Origin: Deferribacterales bacterium
GTDB taxonomy: Bacteria > Chrysiogenota > Deferribacteres > Deferribacterales > Geovibrionaceae
Length of the DNA stretch: 64,000 nucleotides
Assembly (NCBI GenBank): GCA_050251945.1
Contig: JBFWLW010000006.1
Span: 96,039 to 160,038 of the forward strand
Reading direction: 5' to 3'
In this document: piece by piece, positions 6,032 through 42,459 of the stretch
Layout: each line of letters begins with the position of its first letter
How positions within the stretch are numbered: position 1 is the stretch's first letter
The notes under the pieces: model-generated
The model's input: the letters and a program-made list of their open reading frames with translations, nothing else
What the model was told of the DNA's origin: nothing
Databases searched by the model: none
Program-made: the position numbers and the translations under genes

Positions 6032-6811
6032 ATGCAAGAGACTGCAAAAAACATACGAAGAAACATAATACGCATGGCAAACGCTTCAAAGAGTCCGCAC
6101 GTCGGCTCGGCACTTTCGTGCGCGGACATTCTTACAGTACTCTATCACAATATTTTAAATCTGCCGGAACCCGCAGACGAAACAAGGGATTACTTCCTTC
6201 TGTCAAAAGCCCATTCCGCAATGGCGCTGTACAGCACTCTCAATTCAAAAGGGTTTCTGAGCGATGAACACATGATGAGCTATTACCAGAACGGAGGGAT
6301 ACTTCCGGCACATACCGACAGGTTTACAAACGACTACGTTGAAATTTCAGCAGGAAGTCTGGGACACGGTCTGCCCATCGGGCTTGGTATTGCAAAGGCA
6401 ATGAAACTCCAGAAAAAGCCCAACAGGGTGTTTGTGCTGATGGGTGACGGAGAAAGTCAGGAAGGTTCCGTTTGGGAAGCGGCAATGCTCGCGCCGAAAC
6501 TGGAACTGAACAACCTCACTGCGATGATAGATTATAACAACCTGCAAGGATACGGACGCGCTAAAGAACTGGTCGCATACGAACCGGTCAGAGACAAATG
6601 GGAAAGTTTCGGCTGGGACACAGTGTGCATAAACGGGCATGACTATGACGCAATTTCGGATGCTCTCTCATCCCCATCCGGCAGACCGAAGATGGTAATC
6701 TGTAACACTATAAAAGGTAAAGGCGTTTCCTTCATGGAAGATCAGCTTATCTGGCATTATTACATTGTCACCGACGAGCATATGAAGAACGCTCTGGAAG
6801 AGTTATCATGA
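6032..6811 (+). CDS. Transketolase-like, N-terminal (ThDP-binding) subunit
   Basis: SPHVGSALS, LSKAH, GSLGHGL, ThDP motif GDGESQEGSVWEA...DYNN, TIKGKG. Confidence 0.93.
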   Translation: MQETAKNIRRNIIRMANASKSPHVGSALSCADILTVLYHNILNLPEPADETRDYFLLSKAHSAMALYSTLNSKGFLSDEHMMSYYQNGGILPAHTDRFTNDYVEISAGSLGHGLPIGLGIAKAMKLQKKPNRVFVLMGDGESQEGSVWEAAMLAPKLELNNLTAMIDYNNLQGYGRAKELVAYEPVRDKWESFGWDTVCINGHDYDAISDALSSPSGRPKMVICNTIKGKGVSFMEDQLIWHYYIVTDEHMKNALEELS

Positions 6812-7722
6812 GAAACAGAATAGCGAAAAGGATATATGAAAAAGCAAAAGACGATGCGTCTTTATTTCTGATTTCAGGAGACGCTGGACTCGGAGTATGG
6901 GAGCCTTTTCAGAAAGATTTTCCGGACAGATTTCTGAATCCCGGCGTAAACGAGGCATGCGATGTAGGCATGGCGGCAGGACTGGCACTCTGCGGTCATA
7001 AAGTTGTCTACTACAACATAGCGCCGTTTGTCGTAATGCGCCCCTATGAGCAGGTTCGCAACGACGTATGCTATCAGGAACTTCCGGTCATATTCGTCGG
7101 AACGGGAAGCGGCATAACCTACGCACCGGCAGGAATGACACACTATGTAGTTGAGGATATTGCACTTTGCAGGACACTGCCTAATATGAACATCTTCTCC
7201 CCGTGCGACCCGCTGGAAGCCGACGCCGCATTCGCATATGCATACGAAAGCAGAAACCCCACCTACATCCGTATCCCGAAAAACGGAGAACCTGAACTTC
7301 ACAAATGTCCGATAAAAGATATCACTCTTCCGCAGGTTATCGCGGAAGGCAAAGACGTTCTTCTGATATTCCACGGTTCCATTTCCGATGAAGTTCTTAC
7401 GGCATGCGTCGAGTTGGATAAAAAAGGGATATCCGCCTGTGCGGTTTCAAATCCTTGCGTAAGCACTGTTTCAGAAGCAATTCTGGATATGATAAGTATA
7501 TTTCCGGCGGTTTTCTGTATTGAAGAGCATTTCCAGATCGGCGGGCTGGGAACCATTCTGGCAGATTCGTGCAACCAATTTTCAATACACAAGAAAATAT
7601 ATAAAATGGGCATACGGAACCATTATATACACACTGTCGGAAACAGAGATTTCTTAAGAAAACATTTCGGCATAGATTCGCAGTCAATCGTTACGGCTGT
7701 TTCGGAGGTACTCAATGGGTAA
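6808..7722 (+). CDS. Transketolase-like, C-terminal subunit
   Basis: RFLNPGVNEA...GMAAGLA, RPYEQVRND, GMTHY, EEHFQIGGLG. ATGA overlap with the N-terminal subunit gene. Confidence 0.92.
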   Translation: MRNRIAKRIYEKAKDDASLFLISGDAGLGVWEPFQKDFPDRFLNPGVNEACDVGMAAGLALCGHKVVYYNIAPFVVMRPYEQVRNDVCYQELPVIFVGTGSGITYAPAGMTHYVVEDIALCRTLPNMNIFSPCDPLEADAAFAYAYESRNPTYIRIPKNGEPELHKCPIKDITLPQVIAEGKDVLLIFHGSISDEVLTACVELDKKGISACAVSNPCVSTVSEAILDMISIFPAVFCIEEHFQIGGLGTILADSCNQFSIHKKIYKMGIRNHYIHTVGNRDFLRKHFGIDSQSIVTAVSEVLNG

Positions 7723-20834: not shown

Positions 20835-21731
20835 ATGAAAATACTTATAATCAAGCTCGGCTTTTCAGAAACACTTGATCCGGAAATAGGCAAGGTCACT
20901 TCTCTTGGGGACGTGCTGAGAACAACACCCATCCTGTATGCTTTGAAAGAAAAGTATTTTGAATCGCACATCACATGGCTGACAGACGAATCCGCCGCTC
21001 CCCTGCTCCATTACAACCCGTACATAGACAGGCTGCTCATCTGGGACAGTTTCATCGGTTTCCAGCTTATGAGTGAACGTTATGATATAGTGATAAACCT
21101 TGAAAAGATAGGCGGTCTCTGCGCCCTTTCAAACCGTATCAACGCATGGAAGAAATACGGCTTCAGATTCGACGAGACAACAGGTTCATACGACGTTTAC
21201 GAAGGCGCTGAATACGCCCTTGACCTCTGCCTGAAACGAAACATAAAAAAGAACAACATCAGGATTTGGCAGGAAATACTTGTTGAAATGGTTGGCGTCG
21301 CATGGGCACAGCAGCCGTATATCCTTGGTTACAAGCCTAAATCTTCCGAAACTCACGATGTGGGATTCAACTTTAAGGTCGGAACAAAATTCCCTGAAAA
21401 AGCATGGGACGATGAAAAATGGAAACAGTTGGGAGAGCTTCTTTCAGCGGACAACAGAACGTTCTGTTACCAGCAGGGGCTTTCAAATCTGTACGAATAC
21501 ATTGACTGGATAAACTCCTGTAAAACACTTATAACCTGCGACAGTCTCGGTCTGCATATCGCTCTGGCGCTGAACAAGAACGTGATAGGTCTTTTCGGCC
21601 CCACAAACGCCACTGAGGTCTTCTTTTACGGAAGATCATCACACATCAAAAAGGACACAATGAAGCTTATAGATGCGCAGGAAGTTTTCGACGTTTATAA
21701 AAAAGCTGTCGACCGCGGAGTAAGCGAATGA
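20835..21731 (+). CDS. Glycosyltransferase family 9 (heptosyltransferase-like)
   Basis: MKILIIKLG...SLGDVLRTTP, HITWLT, NPYID, KAW, ITCDSLGLHIALAL, GLFGPT. Confidence 0.88.
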   Translation: MKILIIKLGFSETLDPEIGKVTSLGDVLRTTPILYALKEKYFESHITWLTDESAAPLLHYNPYIDRLLIWDSFIGFQLMSERYDIVINLEKIGGLCALSNRINAWKKYGFRFDETTGSYDVYEGAEYALDLCLKRNIKKNNIRIWQEILVEMVGVAWAQQPYILGYKPKSSETHDVGFNFKVGTKFPEKAWDDEKWKQLGELLSADNRTFCYQQGLSNLYEYIDWINSCKTLITCDSLGLHIALALNKNVIGLFGPTNATEVFFYGRSSHIKKDTMKLIDAQEVFDVYKKAVDRGVSE

Positions 21732-22864
21732 ACATAAAACTTTCACTGGTGACTTCAACACATAACGCATATCCGCATAACTTTGACGAACTGGGTAAAT
21801 CTCTGGAACAGGAAGGGATCGACCTTGAGATAATATATGTTAACGATCCTTACGGAAATTTCCACGATAATATCTCAAAAAGCGGTGAAATCAGGCGGAT
21901 AACACCACCGAACGGACTGGGGTATTTCAATTCCATGAGATTCGGTCTTTTGCAGACCACAGGCACCTATGTATATTTTCTGTCAGACGACGCAAAACTG
22001 AACGACATCAGTTTCCACGCCAAAGCCATTAAAGAGCTTAACGGCGGCGCAGACCTTGTGTTCAGCAGATCGGAGATATCTTCGGAACACGGAAGCTATA
22101 TAATGCACCACCCGTTCAGACAGTCTTATGTCCCCGCTGAATTTCTTCGTGAGTGGTACAATCTGCGGATGATATTTGTGGATTATTTCAGTTTCAGCAG
22201 CTTTATGTTCCGTAAAGACATGCTTATGAAAGCCGAAGCTTTTATATCCACCTTTCCCTACGCACTCTCTCTGGACACTGCAACGATACTTAAAACCATT
22301 CTTTTAAGCAAATCCATTGCATTCGTCGACTGTGTTTCCGCCACAAGGCACAACACGGGCATCAGCAGATACAACAACGACAAGAGCAACATGACCGATC
22401 AGGTGGTAAACCACTTTGCAATCCCTCTGGATGTTTCAGAATTCATAGATAAACTGCATATCGGTCAGGATCTGCACAACGAGCTTAAAGTTTTTTTCAA
22501 CCAGTACGCCATCTATTCATTTAACGCCATAACCTCCGACTTTTATCAGACATCAAATCAGATGATATTTGACAGTATGGAATTTGACAGCCTCCTTAAA
22601 GGCAGAGAAGTATATATCTACGGACGGGGCTGGGTTGGACTTGCGCTGTTTGACTATCTCAAAGATTCAGGCATCCGCACAAAAAGCTTTATAGACGATT
22701 TCAAAACGGACGAATCCATCCTTCCGTTCGATAAATTCAGCTCCATGGAGCATAAAAACACTTCGGTGATAATAGCCAGCTACAAGTGTTCTGACGTTTT
22801 TAAAATATATAAGAAACTCATAGGCTTAAAAGATATCGAAGTGATAGATCTCATGAGAGTATGA
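21728..22864 (+). CDS. Divergent GT2-like glycosyltransferase with C-terminal Rossmann-like domain
   Basis: SLVTSTHN, EIIYVND, NGLG...GTYVYFLSDD; C-terminal VYIYGRG...FIDDF. Confidence 0.7.
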   Translation: MNIKLSLVTSTHNAYPHNFDELGKSLEQEGIDLEIIYVNDPYGNFHDNISKSGEIRRITPPNGLGYFNSMRFGLLQTTGTYVYFLSDDAKLNDISFHAKAIKELNGGADLVFSRSEISSEHGSYIMHHPFRQSYVPAEFLREWYNLRMIFVDYFSFSSFMFRKDMLMKAEAFISTFPYALSLDTATILKTILLSKSIAFVDCVSATRHNTGISRYNNDKSNMTDQVVNHFAIPLDVSEFIDKLHIGQDLHNELKVFFNQYAIYSFNAITSDFYQTSNQMIFDSMEFDSLLKGREVYIYGRGWVGLALFDYLKDSGIRTKSFIDDFKTDESILPFDKFSSMEHKNTSVIIASYKCSDVFKIYKKLIGLKDIEVIDLMRV

Positions 22865-22865
22865 G

Positions 22866-25433
22866 ATGATAAACGCATTTGTCCCGACACTGAACAATGA
22901 AAAGACCATAAGACGCGTTCTGAAAACCATCAAGGCGCAGACAATACAACCGTCAAGATTCATAGTTATCGACAGCGGATCCACCGACGGCACAGAAAAT
23001 ATATGCCGCGAAGAAGGTTTTGAATTCTATCCGCCTTCATATTTCGGAGTTGATGGTATCCTCGGTCTCGGCAGAGCGAGAAACCGCATATTGGAACTAA
23101 TTGACACGCCTTATCTTCTCTCCGTTGACAGCGATATCATACTCCGTCCAGACCATATAGAGAACCTTTTGCCTATACTAAAGAACAACCCCAAACTTGC
23201 GGGCGTTGCGGCAAAACAGATAGAGCTTAACCGCACGGAGATGGGCGACCGATGCCGTGCGCTGGTGGATATGCGCGACCTTTATAAACCGCTGGGTTCC
23301 GAAACGGACGAATACCGCGAATTTCTGCTGGGTTCAAACAGTATATACAGAACAGAGGCTCTCCACAAAGCGGGCATAGCCGAAAACGGCAATAAATACC
23401 GACCGTTCGACGACAGCCTTATGTCCAACTATGAAGACGTGGATATCGGCATAAAACTCAAAAAACTCGGTTACGACCTGCTCTGGCACCCCGCCCAACA
23501 TACTTATCATCTGCAAAAAGACGATGTCGCGAGCTATCTTAACCGCGCGTACCGCTACAGAGTGTTCAAATGGTCCATGCAGGGTGCATTTCAGGACGAA
23601 ACTCTTTACCGCAAAAAAGCGGAGCACAATATAAACTACACCCGGATGGGGCTTGATATTATAACCGAAAAATCCAGAAGCTATCTGGTATACCCTTATA
23701 TCCTTGCGGGTTTCAAATTCTTTCTGGAAGACGTTTTGAGATTTCAGGAAAATAATCCCGCTGCACAGCGGATTTATAATTCGTTCATAAAATCTCTGGA
23801 GCATTTCACATCCGGCAAAATCAGACATGGTGTCATTGAATTCAACAAAGAAGTTCTGGACAAAATAGACCTTTCACCGACAGACGAAACGGACGATGAG
23901 ATATTTGAATGGTTCCGCTCCCTTGCATCTCTCGACGTTCTCAATAAAAAATTCCCCGCCATGCACGACACAAAGCTGACGGAAACGGATAAAGCTCTGA
24001 AAACGAAAGCAGTGGAAGCGTCCATGCTCCGTATGGAATATGAAAAAGGTCTCAATGCATATGGCAGTTTCAGAGTAATGGTCGTCAACCTGCCGTGGAG
24101 GCAGAACGGCAGGGCAGGCGTTAACGCCGGAAGCCGCTGGCCGCATACATACGATATGTCCCGCTATAAGGCGAATTTGCAGCCTTACATACCCTATCCT
24201 TTCTTCATGGGGCATCTTTTCTCACTGCTGAAAAACAGCGGAATAAGCGCATGGATGACGGACTGTGCCGCCGAAGGATACGCACCTGAAGAATTCATAT
24301 ACGAAGCCTTCGGATACTCGCCCGATCTGCTTATAACGGAGACTTCCGCCCCGTCGTTTGAAAATGATATGACGATCCTGAAACAAATAAAAGAGTTCCT
24401 GCCCGATACAAAAATATGCGTGACAGGTTCACACGCCGGCTTCCTGAAAGAGAACGTTCTGGACGAGGAATACATCGACTTTGCCATTCAGGGTGAGTAC
24501 GAGCTTTCCGCTCTGGAGCTTTCAGAATGTCTGAAAGAAGGCAAAACCTACGGACATATTGACGGACTGATACACCGTTGGGGAATCAATCCGCCCCGCA
24601 AAACCACCGATTTTGCCGCATTGCCGCGACCTGAAAGAGTAATCACGCCATTTTATAACTATAATGACCGACCGGTGAGCGCTCTTGCGTATCCTTCATT
24701 CCAGACTCAGCTTTCCCGCGGCTGTCCGTACAAATGCTGTTTCTGCCAGTGGGTGCATACAATCTACGCTGACGGATACAGGAAAGCCGATACTGATACC
24801 ATTGTAAAAGAGATTCTCGACGCGCAGGGAAAATTCGGAATCCGGTCGTTTTATCTGGACGACGAGACATTTAACATAGATAAAAAACACCTGCACAATT
24901 TCTGCGAATCACTGGAAAGGCACGGTGTAAAATTGCCGTGGATGGCTATGGCGCGCGCTGACGGCGGGCTTGACGAAGAAATTTTAATCCGCATGAAAAA
25001 CAGCGGTCTCATCGGGCTTAAATTCGGCATAGAGAGCGTGGATGAAAAAGTTCTGAGCGAGATAAACAAAAAACTTGATATCAGAAAGTGCGAAGAGAAC
25101 CTTGCGCTTTGCAGAAAACTCGCAATAGAGATACACCTTACTTTTTCCATCGGCTACCTTAACGACACACAAGAGACAATTCAAAGGACATTCGACTGGA
25201 TGAAAGAGCAGAATCCCGATTCCCAGCAGGTTTCCATAGTGACTCCTTTCCCCGGAACACCCATGTATGACGAGCTTATCAAAAAGGGTGTTTTGGTCGA
25301 TGATAATCTTAAGGATTTCGACGGTCACAATGCCCACACTTTCCGCGGAAATCTCGAAAGTGACGAGATAGTGCGGCTGAAAGATAAATGGGTCAAAGAC
25401 TGGGCAGAACACAAAAACAGAGGCACAAATTGA
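22866..25433 (+). CDS. Fusion: GT2 glycosyltransferase + cobalamin-binding domain + radical SAM domain (HpnJ-like/class B)
   Basis: N-terminal VPTLN, VIDSGSTDGT, GRARN, SVDSD, YEDVDIG. Middle NAGSRWP, YP, GSHA, GEYE. C-terminal SRGCPYKCCFC, DDETF, FGIES, TPFPGT. Confidence 0.9.
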   Translation: MINAFVPTLNNEKTIRRVLKTIKAQTIQPSRFIVIDSGSTDGTENICREEGFEFYPPSYFGVDGILGLGRARNRILELIDTPYLLSVDSDIILRPDHIENLLPILKNNPKLAGVAAKQIELNRTEMGDRCRALVDMRDLYKPLGSETDEYREFLLGSNSIYRTEALHKAGIAENGNKYRPFDDSLMSNYEDVDIGIKLKKLGYDLLWHPAQHTYHLQKDDVASYLNRAYRYRVFKWSMQGAFQDETLYRKKAEHNINYTRMGLDIITEKSRSYLVYPYILAGFKFFLEDVLRFQENNPAAQRIYNSFIKSLEHFTSGKIRHGVIEFNKEVLDKIDLSPTDETDDEIFEWFRSLASLDVLNKKFPAMHDTKLTETDKALKTKAVEASMLRMEYEKGLNAYGSFRVMVVNLPWRQNGRAGVNAGSRWPHTYDMSRYKANLQPYIPYPFFMGHLFSLLKNSGISAWMTDCAAEGYAPEEFIYEAFGYSPDLLITETSAPSFENDMTILKQIKEFLPDTKICVTGSHAGFLKENVLDEEYIDFAIQGEYELSALELSECLKEGKTYGHIDGLIHRWGINPPRKTTDFAALPRPERVITPFYNYNDRPVSALAYPSFQTQLSRGCPYKCCFCQWVHTIYADGYRKADTDTIVKEILDAQGKFGIRSFYLDDETFNIDKKHLHNFCESLERHGVKLPWMAMARADGGLDEEILIRMKNSGLIGLKFGIESVDEKVLSEINKKLDIRKCEENLALCRKLAIEIHLTFSIGYLNDTQETIQRTFDWMKEQNPDSQQVSIVTPFPGTPMYDELIKKGVLVDDNLKDFDGHNAHTFRGNLESDEIVRLKDKWVKDWAEHKNRGTN

Positions 25434-26446
25434 ACATTCTCATAACAGGCGGCTGCGGCTTTGTCGGCAGCAGTCTGGCACTGAATATAAAACAGAAATA
25501 TCCGCAATACGATGTGACCGCGCTGGACAATCTCCACAGAAACGGCAGTGAACTTAATATCCCGATACTCCACGAGGCGGGGATAAACTTCATACAGGGC
25601 GACGTGCGCCGACCGGAAGACCTTGAGCCGCTCCGCTATGACCTCATGATAGAGGCGAGCGCGGAGCCGTCTGTAATGGCGGGACTTAACGGCGACGACA
25701 GGTATCTGATGGAGACGAATTTCGGCGGACTGTTCAACTGTGTCCGTTCGGTGCTGGACAACAGCGCAAAACTGATCTTCCTGTCAACCAGCAGAATCTT
25801 CCCCATGTCCGCCATAAACGGGCTGGAATACATTGAAGAAGCGTCCCGCTACACCATGAAATATGGACACGGCATCGCGGAGAACTTCCCGAAAGAAGGG
25901 ACACGCTCCCTTTACGGCATGAGCAAATATGCGGGTGAGCTTCTGATAGCAGAATATGCCGAGATGTTCGGGCTTAAGTCTATAATAAACAGATGCGGGC
26001 TTCTGGCGGGCAAAGGTCAGTTCGGCAAAACCGATCAGGGAGTTGTTACCCACTGGGCGGCAAGCTACATTTACGACAAGCCGCTAAGCATCTTCGGAAA
26101 CGGAAAACAGGTGCGCGATGTTCTGAACGTGCGCGACCTCTTCCGCCTCATTGACATGCAGATGCACAATTTTGACAGGTTCCGCAACGAACTCTTCAAT
26201 GTTGGCGGAGGCATAAACAACTCGCTGTCCATATTTGAACTGGACGCGCTCTGCAAGAAACTGATCAGAAATAAAGAGGTGCCGTTCATGCCGGAACGGG
26301 TACTGGATATAAAATATTACGTCACAGACAATACAAAGATACAAAGTTTCGGCTGGTCGCCTGAAATTTCAGCGGAGGAAACTCTGAAAGAGATAACAGA
26401 CTGGCTGAAAGAGAACAAAGAGGAACTGAAATGGATATTTGCCTGA
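25430..26446 (+). CDS. NAD-dependent epimerase/dehydratase, CDP-paratose 2-epimerase-like
   Basis: [40 protein letters not shown] 25430 overlaps the upstream TGA. Confidence 0.85.
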
Positions 26447-27492
26447 TAACCGGAAGCGGCGGACTGATAGGCTCGGAGGCGGCGGAGTTTTTCTCTGCGC
26501 ATTTTGACAAAGTGATAGGCATCGACAACGACATGCGCTCCTATTTCTTCGGACAGGGAGCGTCAACCTCGTGGAACGTTGCCCGTCTTTCGGAAAAACT
26601 CAAAAATTATGAACATTTCAACATAGACATCAGAGATTTTGAAAAACTGGAAAAACTCTTCTCGGAATACGGCACGGATATAAAGTTCGTTCTGCATACC
26701 GCGGCACAGCCCAGCCACGACTGGGCGGCGAAAGAACCCTTCACTGATTTCGGCGTGAACGCCAACGGTACGCTGAACACTCTGGAAGCCGCAAAGAGAC
26801 ACTGCCCCGATGCGGTCTTCATCTTCACATCCACAAACAAAGTATACGGGGATACGCCGAACCTTCTGCCTCTGGTGGAGCTTGAAACACGCTGGGAAAT
26901 TGATGAAAGTCACCCCTATTTCGCCAAAGGCATAGACGAAACCATGTCTATAGACAATTCAAAACACTCCATTTTCGGCGCAAGCAAGGTTGCGGCGGAT
27001 GTCATGGTTCAGGAATACGGACGCTATTTCGGCATGAAAACTGGGGTTTTCCGCGGCGGATGCCTGACAGGCCCCAACCACTCCGGCGCTCAGCTTCACG
27101 GTTTTCTGAGCTACCTGATCAAATGCGCGGTCACCGACACCCCCTACACCGTTTTCGGCTACAAGGGCAAGCAGGTGCGCGACAACATCCACTCTTTCGA
27201 TATGATAAATGCTTTCCGCCATTTTTATAAAGCACCCCGCTCCGGCGCAGTGTATAACATGGGAGGAAGCCGGCACAGCTGCTGTTCCATGCTGGAAGCC
27301 GTCGCTATGGTCGAAAAGCTGACCGGCAGACCGTTCCGCCACACATACACGCAAGACAACAGAAGCGGCGACCATATCTGGTGGATAAGCGACGTTTCAA
27401 AATTTAAAGCCGACTACCCTGAATGGGACTATACGTATAATGTCGAACAGATTATTTCCGAAATATATGATACTATGAAACAAAGATTCTGA
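26431..27492 (+). CDS. NAD-dependent epimerase/dehydratase, CDP-paratose/tyvelose 2-epimerase-like
   Basis: [47 protein letters not shown]. Confidence 0.88.
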
Positions 27493-27500
27493 GGTTCATT

Positions 27501-28604
27501 TTGAGAGAATACACTATTGAAGACATCTCCTACACAATAACCGAATACTGCCCCGGACCATGCCGTTACTGCTCTATATGGAAGCAGGAGGACAGGCGCG
27601 GAGAAGAACTCACCGATGCAGAACTGGACAGCATCTTCTCCTCAAAACACCTCGATCTGAAAAAGGTTCACCTCACAGGGGGCGAACCCCACATGAGCGA
27701 CACCTACCTGCGCGTTGTGGACAGCATCTACCGTTTCCACGACAGCGTTGTAATAGATTCGCCCATAACGGGCTGGTTTCCCGAAAGGCACGAAGAGATA
27801 GCGAAATACGTTCTCAAAAAGCACCCGCTCTATCGTCTGGATATCTCCCTCGACGGCGACGAGGAGACCAACGCAAAGATACGCCTTCGCAAAGACGGCT
27901 TTAAATCGGCGATGGAAACCCTTGAGCGCCTGAAAAAACTGAAAGGACTGGTTCTGCGCTTTCAGTTCACTATTTACAAAGAAAACCTGCATCTCATCGA
28001 ATGGATATACAACTTCGCAAAAGAGATGGGCGTGGGGCTTTATATCGGCTACGGACGGTTCAGCAGCGAACGCTATAAGAACACACAGGACAATCTGGAA
28101 AAATGCACCCTGAACAAGAACAGTTTTATCTGGACCGACGACGAGCTGAAACTGATAGACGAACAGCTTGTAAAGATAGGCTACGACAAAGGGCGCTACA
28201 GAAGCAAATATCTCCTGCAAAAAGCAGTTTACGAAGGAGAGAAGATAGACTTCAACTGCTATATGGGCGGTCGGAGTATAGATATCGACCCATACGGCAA
28301 CGTATTCCCATGTCTTCTGTGGCTGAACTATCTGAAAATGGGCAATGTGCGCAAAGCCGGCAGTCTGGACAAGGTTCTCGAAGACGATCAGGCGCAGGAC
28401 GTTCTCACCATGATACGCTCCAAACAGTGCCATGAGGACTGCCTTTACACCTGCGCAAACAAAATGACGCTTATCAACCCTGAGATACCAGCCGTCGGCA
28501 TGATACGGTATCAGGGAAAATACGGATACATCTTCAGCGAAAAGGACGTCATCCCCGTTAAACCGTGGTGGTATGACGAATACGTCCAGAGGGGCATAAT
28601 TTGA
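27501..28604 (+). CDS. Radical SAM/SPASM protein
   Basis: CPGPCRYC, TGGEP, ISLDG; CYMG...IDPYGNVFPC...MGNV...CHEDCLYTC. Confidence 0.9.
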   Translation: MREYTIEDISYTITEYCPGPCRYCSIWKQEDRRGEELTDAELDSIFSSKHLDLKKVHLTGGEPHMSDTYLRVVDSIYRFHDSVVIDSPITGWFPERHEEIAKYVLKKHPLYRLDISLDGDEETNAKIRLRKDGFKSAMETLERLKKLKGLVLRFQFTIYKENLHLIEWIYNFAKEMGVGLYIGYGRFSSERYKNTQDNLEKCTLNKNSFIWTDDELKLIDEQLVKIGYDKGRYRSKYLLQKAVYEGEKIDFNCYMGGRSIDIDPYGNVFPCLLWLNYLKMGNVRKAGSLDKVLEDDQAQDVLTMIRSKQCHEDCLYTCANKMTLINPEIPAVGMIRYQGKYGYIFSEKDVIPVKPWWYDEYVQRGII

Positions 28605-29659
28605 TCTGGTTCGACCTTGTTACGCCGAAATCCGTTATGTTCTTCCGCCCCTTTATAGAGGGCATAAAGGCGCGCGGCAAAACCGTTCTCGTCACTGCAC
28701 GCGAAGGAGACGGCTATAAAGAGGTGGTTGACCTGCTCAACCTCTATAAAATCGAGTTCGTGAACCGCGGATACTTCGGCGGTGCGAATCTCGGAGACAA
28801 ACTTAAGGCATCAATTCACCGCCAACTTGCGCTGATGGAATACATCGAAAAATGCAGTATAACCAAGCTGGTCTGCCTTTGCAGCGTGGACGCCAACCGC
28901 GTTGCTTTCGGGCTTGGTATACCGATAATCAATTTTTACGACATCCCCCTTTCAGACCATACGGCAAATTTCCGCAAAGCTCTGCCGCAGGCAAGGCTCA
29001 CGCTGCCCCTTTCAACAAAGGCGTTCAGACCGTACATGGTACCGCAGAGCATTTTCGAGCGCTTCTCGCTGGAACCGGAACAGATATTCTCATACAATTT
29101 TCTCGACGTCGTGGCATGGCTCCACGACTTTGAGCCGGATATCAACTTTTTCAGAGACTTTCTGAAATCCCGCGGACTGGACACGAACAAAAAAACAATT
29201 GTGGTGCGCGAGGAAGAGTTTAAGGCGTCATACGTAGGGAAAAAATATCCGGTGCTTTACGAAGGGCTTGAGCTGATAAAAGAAAAAATGAACGTCAACA
29301 TCGTCCTTATCCCCAGATATGAGGCGGAGCCACTTAAAGCGATGTTTCCCTATGCCACAGTTCTTGAGGAAAAGATGGTTATCCAGCACCTTCTGGCGTT
29401 CGCCGACCTTTTCATCGGCGGCGGCGGAACGCTTAACTCAGAGGCGTGCTACTTCGGCACACCCGTAATATCCACCCGTTCGTTTATCTCCCACTATGAC
29501 AAACTGCTGATTGACAGCTCGCTCATGGAAAAAGCGGACACAGCGGAAGAGCTTCTTGAAAAAGCACAGCAGATAATATCAAAACGCCATGATCCGAAAC
29601 CGCTGTTCGATACCATGTCTTTTGATATGGACAGCATTATTGAGGAGATACTTAAGTAA
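28601..29659 (+). CDS. DUF354-family putative glycosyltransferase (GT-B-like)
   Basis: MIWFDLVTPK..FF, VTARE, RVAFGLGIP, VVREEE..ASY, FIGGGGTLNSEA..GTPVIS. Confidence 0.78.
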   Translation: MIWFDLVTPKSVMFFRPFIEGIKARGKTVLVTAREGDGYKEVVDLLNLYKIEFVNRGYFGGANLGDKLKASIHRQLALMEYIEKCSITKLVCLCSVDANRVAFGLGIPIINFYDIPLSDHTANFRKALPQARLTLPLSTKAFRPYMVPQSIFERFSLEPEQIFSYNFLDVVAWLHDFEPDINFFRDFLKSRGLDTNKKTIVVREEEFKASYVGKKYPVLYEGLELIKEKMNVNIVLIPRYEAEPLKAMFPYATVLEEKMVIQHLLAFADLFIGGGGTLNSEACYFGTPVISTRSFISHYDKLLIDSSLMEKADTAEELLEKAQQIISKRHDPKPLFDTMSFDMDSIIEEILK

Positions 29660-29865
29660 TGTTTACGGAAACGAATATCCGCTCCATCCTGAAAGCCGTT
29701 TCATGGCGGTTCTTCGGAACCATGACAACTATCATAATAGTCTATGTTATGTTCAAACGGCTTGATGTCGCCATTTTCACAGGACTTCTGGAAACCGTAT
29801 CCAAGATAGCTCTGTATTTTGTTCATGAACGCATCTGGAACAAAATACCCGTCGGAAAGCAGTAA
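29659..29865 (+). CDS. DUF2061-family small membrane protein
   Basis: [10 protein letters not shown]...T...[10 protein letters not shown]. Confidence 0.85.
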
Positions 29866-30758
29866 TGGATCTTTCATATCTGGACAGGCTGGAGGCGGAA
29901 AGCATACACATAATCCGCGAAGCCGCGGCAGAAGCGCAAAAACCGGTCATGCTCTATTCCATAGGAAAAGATTCGTCCGTGATGCTTCATCTCGCCATGA
30001 AAGCGTTTCATCCGGCAAAACTTCCTTTCCCCGTCATGCACGTTGACACCAAATGGAAATTCCGCGAAATGATATCTTTCCGCGACGAAACGGCAAAACG
30101 TCTGGGGCTTGATCTTATCGTATACACAAACCCCGAAGGTCTGGAAAAAGATATCAATCCTTTCATACACGGCAGCAAACTGCATACGGACATAATGAAG
30201 ACCGATGCGCTGAAGCAGGCGCTTAACATGCACGGATTCGATATGATATTCGGAGGCGCAAGGCGCGACGAGGAAAAATCCAGAGCGAAAGAACGCATCT
30301 TCTCTTTCAGAGACTCAAACCACAGGTGGGATCCGAAAAATCAGCGTCCCGAACTCTGGGGACATTACAATACAAAGCTGAACAAAGGCGAAAGCCTCCG
30401 CGTGTTTCCGCTTTCAAACTGGACAGAGCTTGACGTCTGGTTCTATATCCTTCGGGAGAAGATTCCGGTCGTTCCGCTGTATCTGGCGAAAGAACGCCCC
30501 GTTGCCGACGTTGACGGAGTTCTCATCATGGCAGACGACGGCAGGATGCCAAAACAATACAATATCACTATGAAATCGGTGCGTTTCCGCACACTTGGCT
30601 GTTATCCGCTGACGGGTGCTGTACCCTCAGAGGCTTCCACTCTTGAGCAGGTTATCGAAGAGATGATGATGTCCACCCTTTCGGAACGGCAGGGACGGAT
30701 AATCGACTTTGACCAGTCAGGCGCTATGGAAAAAAAGAAGACGGAAGGCTACTTTTAA
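29865..30758 (+). CDS. cysD: Sulfate adenylyltransferase subunit 2
   Basis: [52 protein letters not shown]. Confidence 0.97.
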
Positions 30759-32626
30759 TGAGCAGACTTGAAGAATACATGGCAAAGGATGCGGCGAAAC
30801 AGATGCTGCGGTTCATAACCTGCGGAAGTATCGACGACGGAAAGAGCACGCTGATAGGCAGACTGCTGCACGAATGCAGGGCAGTTTACGACGACCAGAT
30901 GGCGGCTGTCGTAAAAGACAGCAAAACATCCGGCACAACAGGCGACGAACCCGATCTGGCGCTTATAGTCGACGGACTGCTGGCGGAACGCGAACAGGGC
31001 ATAACAATAGACGTTGCTCACCGCTATTTCTCCACATCAAAAAGAAAGTTCATAATTCTCGACACCCCCGGACATGAGCAGTATACCCGCAACATGGCAA
31101 CAGGTGCATCAAACGCAGACCTCGCCGTGATACTTATAGACGCACTGAAAGGCATCAGCCCCCAGACCGTACGCCATTCCTATATAGTCAAACTCATGGG
31201 AATCAAAAACGCAGTTGTCTGTATAAATAAGATGGACGCAAAAGGCTACAGCAAAGATATTTTCGATAAGATAGCCGGAGATTATGCAAAAACAGCCGAT
31301 AAAATAGGTCTGTCTTACAGAATAATTCCCGTTTCAGCCCTTAAAGGCGACAACGTGACATCAAAAAGCGATAAAATGCCATGGTACGACGGCGAGAGCC
31401 TTATCGAAATTCTGGAAAGCGCTGAACCCGATGCGCCTTCATCTCACGGTCATCTGAGACTTCCCATACAATACGTTCTGCGCCCCGACAAAACTTTTCG
31501 CGGTTTCTGCGGACGTATCGAATCCGGCGGCATCAGCACAGGAGACAGTATCACCGTTCTGCCGTCCGGCGTGTCCACCCGCATCAAATCAATCTCAATC
31601 GGCGGCAGAAATGTTGAAACCGCTTCCGCTCCGCTTTCAGTGACATTCACAACCGAAGACGAAGTGGACATAAGCCGCGGAGACATGATAGTTCATGACA
31701 AAAAATCCGTCCTGTTCGGAAGCGGGTATACCGCAAACCTTATCTGGATGGATTCCGAGCCGCTGAAACTCAATTCGCGCTATATTCTGAAATGTGCGGC
31801 TGGAAGTATAGGCGCTCATATAAACACCATCTTCAGCAGAACGGACATATCGACACTGAACAGCGAACCCGCATCGTCACTCGGCATAAACGACCTTGCG
31901 TCGGCGGGCATTTCTCTGGACGCTTCCAGACCGTTCGACACCTACGACATGTGCCGCGCAACAGGCAGTTTTATCCTTATAGACAGGATAACGGGCATGA
32001 CAGCCGCCGCAGGCATGATAACTGCATCCGAAAGCCCAAGGAACGTCGTGTGGCATACGCACTCGGTAAATCGTCAGCAGCGCATCGACCTGAAATGTCA
32101 CAAACCTGCAGTGCTTTGGCTCACCGGCTTAAGCGGTTCAGGAAAATCCACAATAGCAAACGCCCTTGAGAGTACGCTAAACAGTTCCGGCATACACACA
32201 TATCTTCTCGACGGCGACAACGTTCGCCACGGACTCTGCAAAGACCTCGGTTTTTCCGCGCAGGACAGAGAAGAGAACATCAGACGCATCGGCGAAACAG
32301 CAAAACTTTTCGCAGACGCAGGTATCGTGACCATAACGGCATTCATCTCCCCTTTCGCAAAGAGCAGAGACCACGTAAGAGCTATCATGCAGGAGGGAGA
32401 ATATATTGAGGTATTCATCGACGCACCCATAGACGTATGCGAACAGCGAGACCCGAAAAATATGTATAAGAAGGCACGCAGCGGTGAAATAAAAGATTTC
32501 ACTGGCATAAACTCACCGTACGAAATTCCGCAGGCGCCTGAGGTACACATACGCACAGATATAATGTCCGTAACTGAATCGGTGGAGATGATTCTGAGTT
32601 ACCTCAGGAAAAAAGGGATAATTTAA
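30758..32626 (+). CDS. cysNC: Bifunctional sulfate adenylyltransferase subunit 1 / adenylylsulfate kinase (NodQ-like)
   Basis: CGSIDDGKSTLIG, EREQGITIDVA, DTPGHEQYTRNM, NKMD; C-terminal WLTGLSGSGKST, LDGDNVR, FTGINSPYE. Confidence 0.96.
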   Translation: MSRLEEYMAKDAAKQMLRFITCGSIDDGKSTLIGRLLHECRAVYDDQMAAVVKDSKTSGTTGDEPDLALIVDGLLAEREQGITIDVAHRYFSTSKRKFIILDTPGHEQYTRNMATGASNADLAVILIDALKGISPQTVRHSYIVKLMGIKNAVVCINKMDAKGYSKDIFDKIAGDYAKTADKIGLSYRIIPVSALKGDNVTSKSDKMPWYDGESLIEILESAEPDAPSSHGHLRLPIQYVLRPDKTFRGFCGRIESGGISTGDSITVLPSGVSTRIKSISIGGRNVETASAPLSVTFTTEDEVDISRGDMIVHDKKSVLFGSGYTANLIWMDSEPLKLNSRYILKCAAGSIGAHINTIFSRTDISTLNSEPASSLGINDLASAGISLDASRPFDTYDMCRATGSFILIDRITGMTAAAGMITASESPRNVVWHTHSVNRQQRIDLKCHKPAVLWLTGLSGSGKSTIANALESTLNSSGIHTYLLDGDNVRHGLCKDLGFSAQDREENIRRIGETAKLFADAGIVTITAFISPFAKSRDHVRAIMQEGEYIEVFIDAPIDVCEQRDPKNMYKKARSGEIKDFTGINSPYEIPQAPEVHIRTDIMSVTESVEMILSYLRKKGII

Positions 32627-37292: not shown

Positions 37293-39893
37293 ATGCTCAA
37301 ATCTGTTATGAAGAAAATATTCGGCTCATATGCCGAACGCTATATCAAGACCATGCAACCCATGGTTTCTGCCGTTGCAGCTCTTGAACCGAAGATGCAG
37401 GAACTCACTTTCGACCAGATAGCGGAAGCCGCTGACCTGCTTAAAGAGAAACTTAAAAACGGCGCAACAGAAGACGACATTATGAATCAGGTGTTCGCCC
37501 TCGTCCGCGAGGCAGGACGCAGAACTCTGAACATGCGTCATTTCGATGTTCAGCTTATGGGCGGATACGCTCTGCATAAAGGCAAAATAGCAGAGATGAA
37601 GACAGGTGAAGGTAAAACACTCGTCGCCACCCTCGCAATGTCTCTTAACGCTATGGGCGGCAAAGGCTCGCACCTCGTAACCGTCAACGACTACCTCGCA
37701 AGACGCGACGCACAGTGGATGAGCCCCATCTATCTGGCAATGGGTCTTTCCGTCGGTATCATAAACCACGAACGCTCGTTCCTCGTTGAATGGGACGACA
37801 AAGAAGCCTTTACAACAAAACTTGCAGAAGTAACACGACCTGAGGCGTATGCCGCGGACATTACATACGGAACCAACAACGAATTTGGTTTCGACTACCT
37901 TCGCGACAACATGAAACCGCCCCACGAACCCACTGCACAGAGAGAACTTAACTTCGCAATAGTGGATGAGGTCGACTCCATCCTTATTGACGAGGCGAGA
38001 ACACCCCTTATTATTTCTGGACCAACTGAAAGAAGCACAGAAAAATATTATAACGTCGACGTTGTCGTCCGCCAGCTCCGTGCGGAAACACACTACAAAG
38101 TTGATGAAAAAAACAGAACCGCACAGATGAACGACGAGGGTATCAACTTTGTCGAAAAAGAACTGGGCATAGAAAACCTTTACGATATCAAACACGTCGA
38201 TATTCTGCACAATGTCAACAACGCACTTAAAGCACACGCTATCTTCAAACGCGACGTTGATTACGTCGTTAAAGACGGTCAGGTTATAATCGTCGATGAG
38301 TTCACCGGACGGCTCCAGCCCGGCAGACGCTATTCCGACGGAATACACCAGGCTCTGGAAGCGAAAGAAGGCGTACAGATAGAAAGCGAGAACCAGACGC
38401 TCGCCTCCATCACATATCAGAACTTTTTCAGAATGTACAAAAAACTTTCCGGTATGACAGGTACGGCTCTTACAGAAGCAAACGAGTTCCTTTCCATCTA
38501 TAACCTCGGCGTTGCCGTTATCCCGACGAACATGAAAATGGTTCGTAAAGACTTCACAGACGTTATCTTCCGCACCGCAAAAGAAAAACACATAGCCATC
38601 GTTGACGAAATAGAAGAGATGAACAAGACAGGCAGACCCGTTCTTGTCGGCACAAGCTCAATTGAGAAGTCAGAACTTATCAGCGATCTGCTTAACCGCA
38701 GAAAGATAAAACATGAAGTTCTGAACGCAAAAAACCACGAACGTGAAGCAGAAATTGTTAAAGACGCAGGACTTCAGGGTGCGGTGACCATAGCCACCAA
38801 CATGGCCGGTCGCGGTACCGATATTAAGCTCGGCGAGGGCGTAAAGGAACTTGGCGGTCTTCACATCATAGGTACGGACAGACACGAATCAAGACGCATT
38901 GACAACCAGCTCCGCGGTCGTGCGGGACGTCAGGGCGACCCCGGTTCATCACGCTTCTTCGTATCACTTGAAGACGATCTCATGCGTATCTTCGGTTCTG
39001 AAAAGATATCTTCTATCATGCAGAAACTCGGTATGAAAGAGGGTGAATCAATAGAACACCCCATCATCACCCGCTCAATCGAAGGCGCGCAGAAGAAAGT
39101 CGAAGCGTTCCACTTTGAAATAAGAAAACACCTGCTGGACTATGACAACGTTATGAACCAGCAGAGAAACGTCGTTTACAGTCTGCGCCGCGATATCATC
39201 TCAGGCGGGGCATCGGAAGAGATAATTACCGAAACCATCGACAATGTTTTAGACACCATGCTTGAAACTCATATCAATGCCGCTGAAAAACCCGACTATG
39301 AAGAATTTCAGAAAGAGATATTTGAAGTTTTCGACATAGAGTTCACTTTTGCAGAGGACAGAAGACAGCTTCACAGTGAAATGACGCGTCTGAAAGAACT
39401 GGTCAACGCCAGACTTGAGCAGAAAAAACAGGATTTCGGCGGATTCTTCACCGACGTGGCAAGATTCCTTTATACTTCCATACTTGACTCCAAATGGAAA
39501 GAGAACCTGCTCCAGATGGATCATCTGCGTGACTCCGTAGGTCTTCGCGGCTATGGACAGAAAGACCCGCTGAACGAATATAAACGTGAAGCATACAATC
39601 TTTTTGTCACCATGATGAACAGGATAAACAGCGAAGTAATCCGCGTTCTGTTCCATGTTGAAATGAACAAAAAATCAGACATTGAAGAGGCGGAACAGAA
39701 TCAGGAACGCGTCCAGACCAAAGAGGAACAGCGCGACATTTTTGCCGAAAAGCCTCAGCAAAGCGAAGAGAAACGTACGCCCATCAAAAGGGAATATCCT
39801 AAGGTCGGAAGAAACGATCCCTGCCCTTGCGGCAGCGGAAAGAAATATAAAAAATGCCACGGCGCAAACGAGCCGGACGCTAACGAAGATTAA
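37293..39893 (+). CDS. secA: Preprotein translocase ATPase SecA
   Basis: [58 protein letters not shown] motif [14 protein letters not shown]. Confidence 0.99.
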
Positions 39894-41035
39894 TCAAAAC
39901 CAAAATCAGCGGAAGTCTTTGAAAAAAGACTTCCGTTTTCTTTTAAATACTGTTTCAGAAAAGCCACCCTGTCATGCTTCATTTTTTCCAGATAACCGTC
40001 TATCATCTGCGGATTGAGTTCAATTCCGAAGCCGTCATTAACAACGCCGCTTTTTAATCTTTGCAGAACCATATCGCCTACAAACCGTTTAAAGTGACTG
40101 GTGTCGTAATAATATTCCATCTCATTGGATATTTTTTCCGTGGTTATACTGTTATAAACAGCAAAGTCTGTAATCGTAAACGGCTTTGCCCTGTGCTCTT
40201 CTGCCGATTTGTATACTGCACCGACAACATCCTTTTTCCATTTAAGCCAGCTACCATATCCGGCATTATAGGCTATCGCTTCCCATTGCATAACATGCGA
40301 AGGGTTGAACACCAGTGTTACTTCCACATTGTTTTTGTAGCAAACGTCAAGTATTTTCATGAAATCTTCGAATGAATTTCTCTTCGTGTCACCATATCTG
40401 TAATCAATAGGTCTTTCGAGATACATTATCGGTAATTTCTCCAGGAAAATGTCAATGTTGTGGTAATGCAAGTATTTATTGAAATTTGTCGGAGTGGTTT
40501 CACCGCTTCCTGTGTAAAGAATAAGTTTATCTCTCTGCGATTTACTGATCTTTTTGATTCCATCCTTCATAATCTCAGATCTAACCAGAAAAGTGTATAT
40601 AGTGGTTGGCAATAAGTCGTAATAGTAAAAGTTCTTCTCATATATCTGAAACTTAGCATTGAAAGATCCATAGTCTAATGAAAACAAAACTTTTTTTAGA
40701 TTTCTCTGTTTCAAAGCAGAGTTGGTATATTGCAGCATTTCATATACTGTTCCCGCTGATACAGCAGAATTATATGTATTATTATCAAAATAGCAGTTTT
40801 CAGGGTCATATCCTTCAGCAGCTCTGGATGTTCCCAATATCAAACATGAAGGTTTGATAGATTCAATCTGTTTAAACTTGATATACCTGATATTAAGTTC
40901 TGAAAACTTATCCCAGTCTCTGCTGCCAATTTTATAAAAACTATAAGGATCTGTGAACTTTACATAAAACAGGACAATACATATCATCAAAAGGACACTT
41001 ATAAAAAAAAGTACAACCCAAAATAAGCTTTTCAT
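39890..41035 (-). CDS. Membrane-anchored periplasmic SGNH-like protein, partner of the MBOAT gene
   Basis: N-terminal TM segment, ILGTSRA (block I-like Ser) and YYDTSHF (DxxH). Confidence 0.65.
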
Positions 41036-41043
41036 AAGCAGCC

Positions 41044-42459
41044 CTAAAACACAAAATATATAAATTGGGATGACTTGAAATTAAAGAATATCCCTATTGT
41101 AAAACATACCGCGGCAAATACCGCAGTATTGTAGTTTATCTTAAATTCGTTCAACTTTTGAATTGAATTTACAGGATAAAGAATAATCGCCATTCCAAAT
41201 ATGAGGATTATCATTTTATGCCAATTAGAGCGGATAAATATAAAAGGCTCATGAAGAGAAATATTGCTCAATGAAAACATTGAGCTGAACATTGTGCCGG
41301 CACTGCTCATATCCTGTGCAGTAAATATTGTTATCGAAAGACTGACGAAGATAAAAGTCATAAGCCATGCGGCAAAATCCGGCAGTTCATATGATATTTT
41401 CTTCTTCCATAAATGATTAAATGCCACGGCAATTCCGTGAATAACACCAAAAACAATAAAAGTCCAGCTGGCGCCATGCCATAAACCGATTACGACCATT
41501 GAAACAAATATGGCTGCCATAGCTTTGGCAAGACTGTAGCTGCCAAATGCCCGCAGGATCGGGATAAAAACATATTTATTTACGAATTGAGAAAGTGTTA
41601 TGTGCCATCGCCTCCAAAAATCCGCCACAGAACGTGCCCTGTAAGGCGAATTAAAATTTACAGGAATTCTGATGTTAAACAGTAAACCAAGCCCTATAGC
41701 CATATCGGCATAACCGCTGAAATCAAAATATATTCTTATAGTTGCGGCAAGGCTGTAGCACCAAGCGGCTGTAAAACTTAAAGAATCTGCACCTGTAAAT
41801 CCCATGGTTACAAATCCGGAAAGATTGTCCGCGATAAAAGCTTTCTTGAATATGCCGATTGAAAAAATAAAAAGCCCTTTGGCAATGTTGTCAAAATTTA
41901 TTTTATTGACGCTTCCTGCTTCAAACTGACTAATTATGTCCTTATGGTGAGTTATTGGACCCGCAATAAGTTGAGGAAAAAAAGTTACAAACAAAGCATA
42001 GTTGACCAAACTGTACTCTTTCGTCTCTCCCCTATATGAATCCACAAGATAAGCGATTTGTTGAAAAGTAAAGAAAGAGATACCAAGAGGCAAAGCAATA
42101 CTGAGCAGAGTCAGCGAACTGCCTGAAAAAAGATTCAGATTGGTTATGAAAAAGTTATAATACTTATAGTAGAACAGCAGTATTACGTTTGCCAGAACAG
42201 ATAAAGTGAGAATGCTTTTCGGCGTGACTCCGAAAATGCGTCTCTTTTCACTTAAAAACCTTCCTGCAGAATAGTTAAAGATGATGGATAACAGGATCAG
42301 AGGCAAAAAAACTATATTCCAGTAGCTGTAAAAAAAGAGAGAGGCTGCAAGTAAAAAAGATCTTGAAACACTTTCAGAAGTTTTAGCAGACAACAGAAAA
42401 TACGCACAGAAAGTCACTGGAAGAAAAACAAATATAAAGACATCACTGTGGAATAGCAT
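41044..42459 (-). CDS. MBOAT-family O-acyltransferase (AlgI/PatA/DltB-like)
   Basis: LPLGISFFTFQ, FFPQLIAGPI, YFDFSGYADMAIG, FWRRWHITLS, GLWHGASWTF. Confidence 0.93.
   Translation of the reverse strand: MLFHSDVFIFVFLPVTFCAYFLLSAKTSESVSRSFLLAASLFFYSYWNIVFLPLILLSIIFNYSAGRFLSEKRRIFGVTPKSILTLSVLANVILLFYYKYYNFFITNLNLFSGSSLTLLSIALPLGISFFTFQQIAYLVDSYRGETKEYSLVNYALFVTFFPQLIAGPITHHKDIISQFEAGSVNKINFDNIAKGLFIFSIGIFKKAFIADNLSGFVTMGFTGADSLSFTAAWCYSLAATIRIYFDFSGYADMAIGLGLLFNIRIPVNFNSPYRARSVADFWRRWHITLSQFVNKYVFIPILRAFGSYSLAKAMAAIFVSMVVIGLWHGASWTFIVFGVIHGIAVAFNHLWKKKISYELPDFAAWLMTFIFVSLSITIFTAQDMSSAGTMFSSMFSLSNISLHEPFIFIRSNWHKMIILIFGMAIILYPVNSIQKLNEFKINYNTAVFAAVCFTIGIFFNFKSSQFIYFVF

Follow-up and report, generated by a model that had tools for sequence, protein, structure and literature searches.

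A 64,000-nucleotide stretch of a Deferribacterales genome (contig JBFWLW010000006.1; hereafter the window) contains a single uninterrupted open reading frame (ORF) at 22866-25433 on the forward strand, encoding an 855-residue protein in which a family 2 glycosyltransferase (GT2) is fused to a radical S-adenosylmethionine (SAM) enzyme. Sequence places the C-terminal half in a large radical SAM family, as yet uncharacterised, which we refer to as 'GSRWPH', and HpnJ is the nearest named relative of this family among those sampled; the fusion most likely works like HpnJ yet is not an HpnJ member. Its Rossmann domain is of the cobalamin-binding (B12) type and, judged from the residues at its pocket positions, is apparently incapable of conventional B12 binding. 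Our leading proposal, to which we give a little less than an even chance, is that by analogy with HpnJ the fusion is a bifunctional surface-glycan tailoring enzyme that would transfer a sugar and then contract its ring to a cyclitol ether, without cobalamin.

Architecture and integrity of the fusion

The original prediction, made from the letters and translations only, described a GT2 domain joined through a helical linker to an HpnJ-like cobalamin radical SAM enzyme. The ORF is real and all of the named motifs are present: DSGSTD (residues 36-41), DSD (88-90), EDVD (190-193), NLPW (408-411), GVNAGSRWP (418-426) and SRGCPYKCCFC (617-627). The fusion of GT2, Rossmann and radical SAM domains is real. 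A Pfam search places PF00535 (GT2) at residues 5-167 (71.5 bits, cut-off 23.3) and PF04055 (Radical_SAM) at residues 616-778 (50.2 bits, cut-off 29.5); the B12-binding family PF02310 matches residues 454-548 at 23 bits, below its cut-off of 32.1 (E 7.7e-5). An AlphaFold2 model (pLDDT 88.6, pTM 0.89) consists of a GT-A domain, a helical domain, a Rossmann domain and a partial barrel. The predicted linker is thus indeed helical, but it is a proper domain of about 175 residues (221-395) rather than a mere linker. The GT2 domain of the model matches SpsA-type folds with Z about 20, and the region from about residue 400 to 855 aligns as a B12-type Rossmann domain plus barrel with TsrM, OxsB, MgmA and CysS. 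Residues D36, D41, D88-x-D90, E190-D191 and H215 of the GT2 domain and the cluster cysteines C620, C624 and C627 are invariant in all 27 aligned sequences, and as judged from alignment and model the GT2 site and the radical SAM cluster motif are intact. Nine shorter GT2 paralogs (P0029, P0030, P0056 and P0058-P0063; two from the homolog search of the fusion and seven from a further search) lack the barrel and retain a 'YNxxExxxE' helix of the Rossmann domain, which suggests that the GT2 module may pack on that domain. Some of these paralogs lie on contigs equal in length to one another's or to that of a full fusion.

The fusion is found whole well beyond this genome. Full-length homologs account for 26 of 53 matches (coverage 96-100%, identity 41-89%), so that the architecture is not an artefact of this assembly; among named organisms a Seleniivibrio has the closest homolog (89% identity), the other named carriers being Denitrovibrio, Sulfurospirillum and Arcobacter. 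Within the phylum it is patchy, occurring in 4 of 68 genomes, and all four copies are whole and without stops. The junction (23826-24247) reads identically in a contig assembled from another sample of this study, and in a relative from a different study nearly all of the gene is covered without a net frameshift; run X1 was left out of this cross-sample check as a possible source. The homologs, the four whole copies in the phylum and these contigs refute the reading as an assembly artefact. Stand-alone full-length radical SAM relatives share 41% identity at most, closer matches being fragments. In the alignment of fusion homologs, P0018 and P0020 are identical over their C-terminal ~190 residues and differ in the remainder, and by this pattern are a recombinant or a chimeric assembly.

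HpnJ and the cobalamin pocket

HpnJ (TIGR03471) is the top NCBIfam family for the fusion and for all four other GSRWPH members tested. The predicted likeness holds as regards the best named family. The fusion itself scores below HpnJ membership, at 200.3 bits against a cut-off of 577.6, where true HpnJ proteins score 775 and 844 bits; identity between the fusion and true HpnJ is 28-29%. The AGSR segment that had been likened to the HpnJ N-terminus does align, as AG[SA]R[WY]. In a maximum-likelihood IQ-TREE analysis of 103 domains (16 near-duplicates dropped; SH-aLRT support only, without bootstrap) the C-terminal halves of the family group together (75 rows, SH-aLRT 94) as sister to two true HpnJ proteins (94), with 26 other B12-domain radical SAM proteins outside.

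Six residues common to the family and HpnJ (R424, D501, W629, D665, H757 and Q788) form a signature that is complete in the fusion, in 81 of 92 members and in all four HpnJ proteins, whereas 27 of 30 other B12-domain radical SAM proteins (neither HpnJ nor family) have none or one of the six. The positions were chosen after inspecting two of the HpnJ proteins, and the other two were added afterwards. A separate search gave, after removal of 8 fragments, 73 full-length proteins, of which 69 have the complete signature; among 74 more distant representatives it is complete in 39 and reaches five of six in 24. From their place in the barrel these residues probably line the active site.

The parallel with the glycosyltransferase HpnI does not survive. 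HpnI (TIGR03472) is not among the 12 families matched by the N-terminal half, and BLASTP against annotated HpnI gives E 8.9; a control HpnI scores 456 bits against the HpnI model. The claim that the gene lies outside any hopanoid context is confirmed, as hpnI and hpnK neighbours are lacking and squalene-hopene cyclase (SHC) was not found in this genome (99.97% complete) or in any of three other well-assembled carriers (92-100% complete), with the same search finding SHC in two Skermanella genomes. We considered Skermanella aerolata as support for cyclitol ether formation, since its genome encodes a member of the family but lacks an HpnJ above the cut-off. It is reported with BHpentol cyclitol ethers at a listed concentration of 0 (PMC12583986 Table S6), and Azospirillum brasilense Sp7, which carries the cassette, gave adenosylhopane only; for these two reasons the case was set aside.

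In solved cobalamin radical SAM structures the pocket for the cobalamin tail is described as a G-x-S motif, whose serine hydrogen bonds to the dimethylbenzimidazole (DMB), one or two glycines on beta4 and a G-E motif on alpha5 (PMC9204698). Aligned to TokK and OxsB, the fusion has I490-T-E492, T520-G521 and Y545-E546 at these positions. Of four canonical pocket residues none or one is present in each of the 92 members, and the same is true of two further sets (73 of 73 and 74 of 74 proteins), whereas 26 of the 30 non-HpnJ, non-family proteins have three or four. The serine of G-x-S (E492 in the fusion) is replaced by glutamate in all 92 members, the Gly/Ala of this motif by a larger hydrophobic residue in 90, and the glycine of the GE motif by tyrosine or phenylalanine in 91, this glycine being kept in 25 of the 30 others. 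The GE motif was placed on the second G-E, following the OxsB alignment; TokK, OxsB, CysS and MgmA all carry E-G-E at the site. The beta4 site of the fusion has a single glycine, as does that of OxsB. All four true HpnJ proteins (L080, L081, L135 and L136) have none of the four canonical residues, despite their classing as cobalamin-dependent. The B12-binding region named in the original prediction is therefore correct as to fold, but the canonical pocket residues are replaced, and because the DMB-pocket motifs are altered as in HpnJ (G-x-S to I-x-E, G-E to Y-E) the label 'cobalamin enzyme' is unsupported. By the same residues the label appears doubtful for the family, and we advise against listing the fusion among cobalamin enzymes on sequence alone.

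The structure to which the model is closest is AprD4 (Z 32.0, 423 residues, root-mean-square deviation 2.9), followed by CysS (Z 26.4), MgmA (26.2), OxsB (25.4) and TsrM (24.9), and AprD4 is described in section 6 of PMC12931638 as not binding cobalamin. The fusion scores 85.7 bits against the AprD4 family NF033070 (cut-off 500), and residue-level alignment to the AprD4 N-terminal domain gave one non-significant stretch only (-2.8 bits). A Streptomyces clavuligerus radical SAM protein, encoded between amidotransferases and a carbamoyltransferase and from this gene order presumably the sugar methylase MoeK5, scores four of four at the pocket and does not carry the six-residue signature. A Lawsonia plasmid encodes a radical SAM protein outside the family (L138:7911-9374), in a locus with a glycosyltransferase and a methyltransferase, that has none of the pocket residues and four of the six signature residues, so a pseudo-B12 branch may be wider than the family and HpnJ. 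A genome-level test of B12 independence was set aside, since five of five carriers have other B12-domain proteins, three of five a class II ribonucleotide reductase above cut-off and two of five CobS.

The cassette and the wider family

The fusion is followed by two CDP-tyvelose 2-epimerase-like short-chain dehydrogenases/reductases (SDR A and SDR B) and a DUF354 gene in all seven fusion-clade loci (the window, L007-L010, L108 and L127; one more locus with the layout of L010 was left uncounted). DUF354 we take to be GT-B-like. SDR A probably starts at a TTG overlapping the fusion stop codon, the ATG at 25388 chosen by the ORF finder lying upstream of the ortholog starts. Promoter and terminator scans at the locus gave results at chance level.

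Table 1. Features of the fusion gene and its cassette, in window coordinates.
Feature	Coordinates	Strand	Remarks
GT9 (heptosyltransferase-like)	20835..21731	+	Upstream in 5/6 assessable fusion-clade loci
Second GT2, unrelated to the fusion	21728..22864	+	Ends 1 base before the fusion ATG
855-residue fusion: GT2, helical domain, cobalamin-binding-like Rossmann domain, radical SAM barrel	22866..25433	+	
GT2 (GT-A) domain, residues ~1-238	22866..23579	+	PF00535, invariant residues, SpsA-type folds
All-alpha domain, residues 221-395 (~175 residues)	23526..24050	+	No Pfam match; retained in GT2-only paralogs
B12-binding-type Rossmann domain	24069..24545	+	Tail pocket altered (I490, E492, T520, Y545)
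GVNAGSRWPH loop, family hallmark	24117..24146	+	By alignment, counterpart in HpnJ is GAG[SA]RY
Radical SAM barrel	24663..25430	+	CxxxCxxC at residues 620-627 (24723-24746); W629, D665, H757, Q788 common to HpnJ
SDR A, CDP-tyvelose 2-epimerase-like	25430..26446	+	YxxxK kept
SDR B, CDP-tyvelose 2-epimerase-like	26431..27492	+	Catalytic Tyr replaced by Phe in 34/34 orthologs
Radical SAM/SPASM gene	27501..28604	+	6/7 fusion-clade loci; missing from L108
DUF354 gene	28601..29659	+	7/7 fusion-clade loci

The cassette lies in a glycan region of about 30 kb that encodes glycosyltransferases and a UDP-galactopyranose mutase-like protein. Also in this region (2355-32626) are two FkbM methyltransferase genes, five further radical SAM genes (at 4057, 4961, 13209, 15181 and 27501), a transketolase split in two (6032-7722), a sulfotransferase at 16449 and CysD/CysNC at 29865-32626, and its content suggests a glycan that is sulfated and heavily tailored. 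Further right, a low-GC stretch (39890-42459) encodes an MBOAT O-acyltransferase and an unannotated 381-residue partner. The CDP-3,6-dideoxyhexose pathway genes rfbF and rfbH are on another contig (C2; L102), and homologs of UDP-glucuronic acid decarboxylase and UDP-glucose dehydrogenase are on C10 of this genome; a UDP-glucuronic acid decarboxylase gene lies within the cassette in L008 and L108 only, and rfbF is present in 2 of 75 loci. A flagellin glycan was considered as the acceptor; in this genome flagellin and Maf are encoded on another contig. Markers of this kind (flagellin, Maf, NeuB or PseB) occur in 12 of 73 family flanks, including L008 and L009, and are lacking at the window locus.

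SDR B belongs to a widespread subfamily (orthologs in L007-L095). All 34 orthologs have phenylalanine in place of the TaTyvE-type catalytic tyrosine, the residue that is taken as the catalytic base of TaTyvE in PMC13098431. Sixteen of 23 plasmid records have SDR B with no family radical SAM protein among the matches listed (40 of 43 rows). Where this is so it adjoins a WecB/TagA transferase gene in all three cases inspected, and in two it is near a UDP-glucose dehydrogenase gene.

The GSRWPH family is recognised by the loop G[VI][RKN]AGSRWPH, and a genome scan (the best 80 of 99 matches) gave 73 loci in many phyla. A glycosyltransferase is fused in 8, adjacent in 31, two genes off in 5 and absent in 23; in the remaining 6 the radical SAM ORF was dropped by the gene caller. 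Fused or adjacent glycosyltransferases thus occur at 39 of 73 loci, and glycosyltransferase clusters make up 96 of 1011 genes there, both figures being undercounts; the GT4 matches behind three of the eight fusions are weak. Both SDR A and SDR B are in the flank at 28 of 73 loci, in several phyla, and neither at 41. The loop is present in 117 of the top 150 representatives, 60 of these 117 are longer than 650 residues, and among the 60 there are 14 with an N-terminal GT2, 8 with a C-terminal GT2 and 3 with a C-terminal GT4 only, about one third having a second radical SAM domain. Well-supported branches of a FastTree tree force at least four, two and three changes for the N-terminal GT2, C-terminal GT2 and C-terminal GT4, respectively. 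Because the tree forces several gains or losses of each architecture, fusion to a glycosyltransferase is, as read from these sequences, a recurring trait (GT2 at either end and GT4 in several lineages) and not a single event. We found no literature on the fusion or the family in a search that left subscription journals and bioRxiv supplements mostly outside.

Several family loci have arrangements of their own. On a plasmid of A. brasilense Sp7 a glycosyltransferase, SDR A, SDR B, the radical SAM protein and another glycosyltransferase are encoded in a row. An Eleftheria terrae plasmid (L096:7561-15237) clusters a PIG-L deacetylase, an SDR, a WecB/TagA transferase, a divergent family-type radical SAM protein and a canonical B12 radical SAM protein, an arrangement that echoes the HpnI-HpnK-HpnJ logic. 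Tandem family copies occur in L014, L019-L021 and L031, most of them with a PF13524 glycosyltransferase; flagellin and Maf genes are also present in L031, and LuxC/LuxE-like genes in the gammaproteobacterial loci. An N-terminal extension of about 280 residues without a Pfam match recurs in L028:1482-2351 and in P0095, P0110, P0112 and P0114.

Proposed reaction, alternatives and known systems

In the reaction that we propose, the two TyvE-like SDRs would tune a nucleoside diphosphate (NDP)-hexose or -pentose, and the GT2 domain would transfer the tuned sugar to a surface-glycan acceptor, either the core of lipopolysaccharide (LPS) or lipooligosaccharide (LOS) or a protein O-glycan. After transfer the radical SAM domain would abstract hydrogen from C5 of the attached sugar, the ring would open, and reclosure between C1 and C5 would give a cyclopentitol in ether linkage, a route that has been proposed for HpnJ and calditol synthase (Cds). 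Such a rearrangement would be redox-neutral and need no methyl donor. In this picture the Rossmann domain, a pseudo-cobalamin domain, would serve to close off the active site and to dock the GT2 module. Because carbocycles cannot serve as glycosyl donors, ring contraction must follow transfer, and this order would explain the repeated fusions of the family to glycosyltransferases. Deletion of hpnJ abolishes the cyclitol ether (PMC13459092), and for Cds section 2.6 of the same source proposes C5 hydrogen abstraction, ring opening and C1-C5 closure. The original prediction offered methylation and ring contraction after transfer as equal options; ring contraction now leads, and methylation loses that standing with the replacement of the DMB-pocket motifs.

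A number of observations weigh against ring contraction without cobalamin. W629 corresponds to Trp215 of TokK, a cobalamin-stacking residue of the radical methylases, the glutamate of the GE motif (E546) is retained, OxsB too has one glycine at the GG motif, and the host makes cobalamin (cob operon). HpnJ is classed as cobalamin-dependent in PMC9204698 and PMC13598231, where the passages concerned cite no cobalamin binding data for it, and it lies beside the methylases MoeK5 and Fom3 in the similarity network of PMC9204698. The link to HpnJ has its own limits: the identity is low, the outgroup of the tree is an opportunistic sample without Cds, MoeK5, Fom3 or GenK, R424 and D665 of the signature are partly fixed by the search patterns, and one outgroup protein scores 294.6 bits with the family profile, against 297-299 bits for HpnJ. 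E492, Q613, Y663, M695 and K719 are family-specific and differ from HpnJ, so the substrate or the reaction may differ. An HpnK-like deacetylase is absent from the cassette, and the two NDP-sugar SDRs that accompany the family at 28 of 73 loci fit action on a nucleotide sugar as well.

Such action is the strongest alternative, rather unlikely in our view: a cobalamin-independent radical dehydration, deoxygenation or epimerisation of an NDP-sugar before transfer, on the logic of AprD4 and AprD3, with the SDRs reducing or epimerising a keto intermediate and the GT2 domain transferring the rare sugar. AprD4 is the top match by structure and by PDB sequence, both SDRs recur with the family in several phyla and follow the fusion throughout its clade, and the nine barrel-less GT2 paralogs, one of them on a contig equal in length to that of a full fusion, would be expected if one radical domain supplied several transferases. 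However, AprD4 differs at D665, H757, Q788 and in its cysteine spacing, the NF033070 score is far under the cut-off, most of the plasmid records (16 of 23) have SDR B without a family radical SAM protein among the matches listed, and 41 of 73 family loci have neither SDR. A true cobalamin-dependent C-methyltransferase of the GenK/MoeK5 type, methylating the transferred sugar, seems unlikely. The Rossmann and barrel architecture with its strong fold matches to TsrM, MgmA, TokK, CysS and OxsB, the C-x-W629 motif as in TokK and CysS, the cob operon, the fact that most members of the class are methylases and the clustering of MoeK5 with HpnJ in one network (PMC9204698) are all consistent with it, but the near-universal changes at the three pocket positions, the sub-threshold PF02310 match and the probable MoeK5, with its full pocket and no signature, argue the other way. 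Still less probable is another radical edit of the glycan (oxidation, C-C branching or a cross-link), perhaps together with the neighbouring radical SAM/SPASM protein; roughly one in three of the long members carries a second radical SAM domain in place of a glycosyltransferase, and five more radical SAM genes lie in the window between 4057 and 28604, whereas the residues shared specifically with HpnJ are left unexplained and the SPASM gene is missing from L108. The chance of an assembly artefact or a read-through of hopanoid HpnI and HpnJ genes is negligible given the 26 intact homologs, the lack of SHC in all four well-assembled carriers and the absence of HpnI likeness, and the metagenome loci L110 and L113, which carry the gene in pieces, are error-prone assemblies because their neighbouring genes are equally fragmented.

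A wider, more speculative version of the ring-contraction proposal, which we hold to be possible though doubtful, is that HpnJ and its larger sister family form a cobalamin-free branch filed as B12-dependent that turns freshly attached sugars into ether-linked carbocycles, the fusion being a one-polypeptide 'attach and carbocyclise' machine. If so, the LPS/LOS or flagellin glycans of many bacteria would be capped by a cyclopentitol that resists acid and glycosidases and escapes routine hydrolysis-based sugar analysis. HpnJ-type ring contraction has not been reconstituted, and the HpnJ substrate is a hopanoid lipid; the fusion, without hopanoid context and maybe making its own substrate, could give a handle on this chemistry. 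In the passage of a 2026 paper that treats the group (PMC13598231), OxsB is the only non-methylating member, apart from BchE, that has been isolated and mechanistically characterised. The pocket analysis predicts that neither the fusion nor HpnJ binds cobalamin, and as the family is widespread and present in cultured, tractable bacteria, including A. brasilense Sp7 and Seleniivibrio woodruffii, a surface-glycan modification is directly searchable.

Among known systems HpnJ, which with HpnI and HpnK serves the synthesis of bacteriohopanetetrol cyclitol ether, resembles the fusion in domain order, in the AG[SA]R[WY] loop, in the six signature residues, in an equal loss of cobalamin-tail pocket residues and in the logic of a glycosyltransferase with a radical SAM enzyme; the fusion differs in falling below the TIGR03471 cut-off, in being joined to a GT2 unrelated to HpnI, in having neither HpnK nor SHC and in its place in a surface-glycan locus with TyvE-like SDRs. 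AprD4, a radical SAM 1,2-diol dehydratase (PDB 6FD2) that works with a reductase, has the closest fold over both domains and also acts on a sugar, but identity is about 20%, AprD4 stands alone in an antibiotic pathway, and it has R, V and N at the positions of D665, H757 and Q788 and a CX3CX3C cysteine spacing. The class B cobalamin radical SAM enzymes (TokK, TsrM, CysS, MgmA and OxsB; MoeK5 and GenK) share the N-terminal Rossmann domain and barrel (Z 20-26), the Cys-x-Trp and the glutamate of the GE motif, whereas the fusion has I-x-E for G-x-S and Y-E for G-E. Finally, Cds (Saci_1489) is likened to the fusion by the type of its proposed product: it is a radical SAM enzyme proposed to make a cyclopentitol ether from a glycoside (PMC13459092), although its substrate is an archaeal tetraether lipid.

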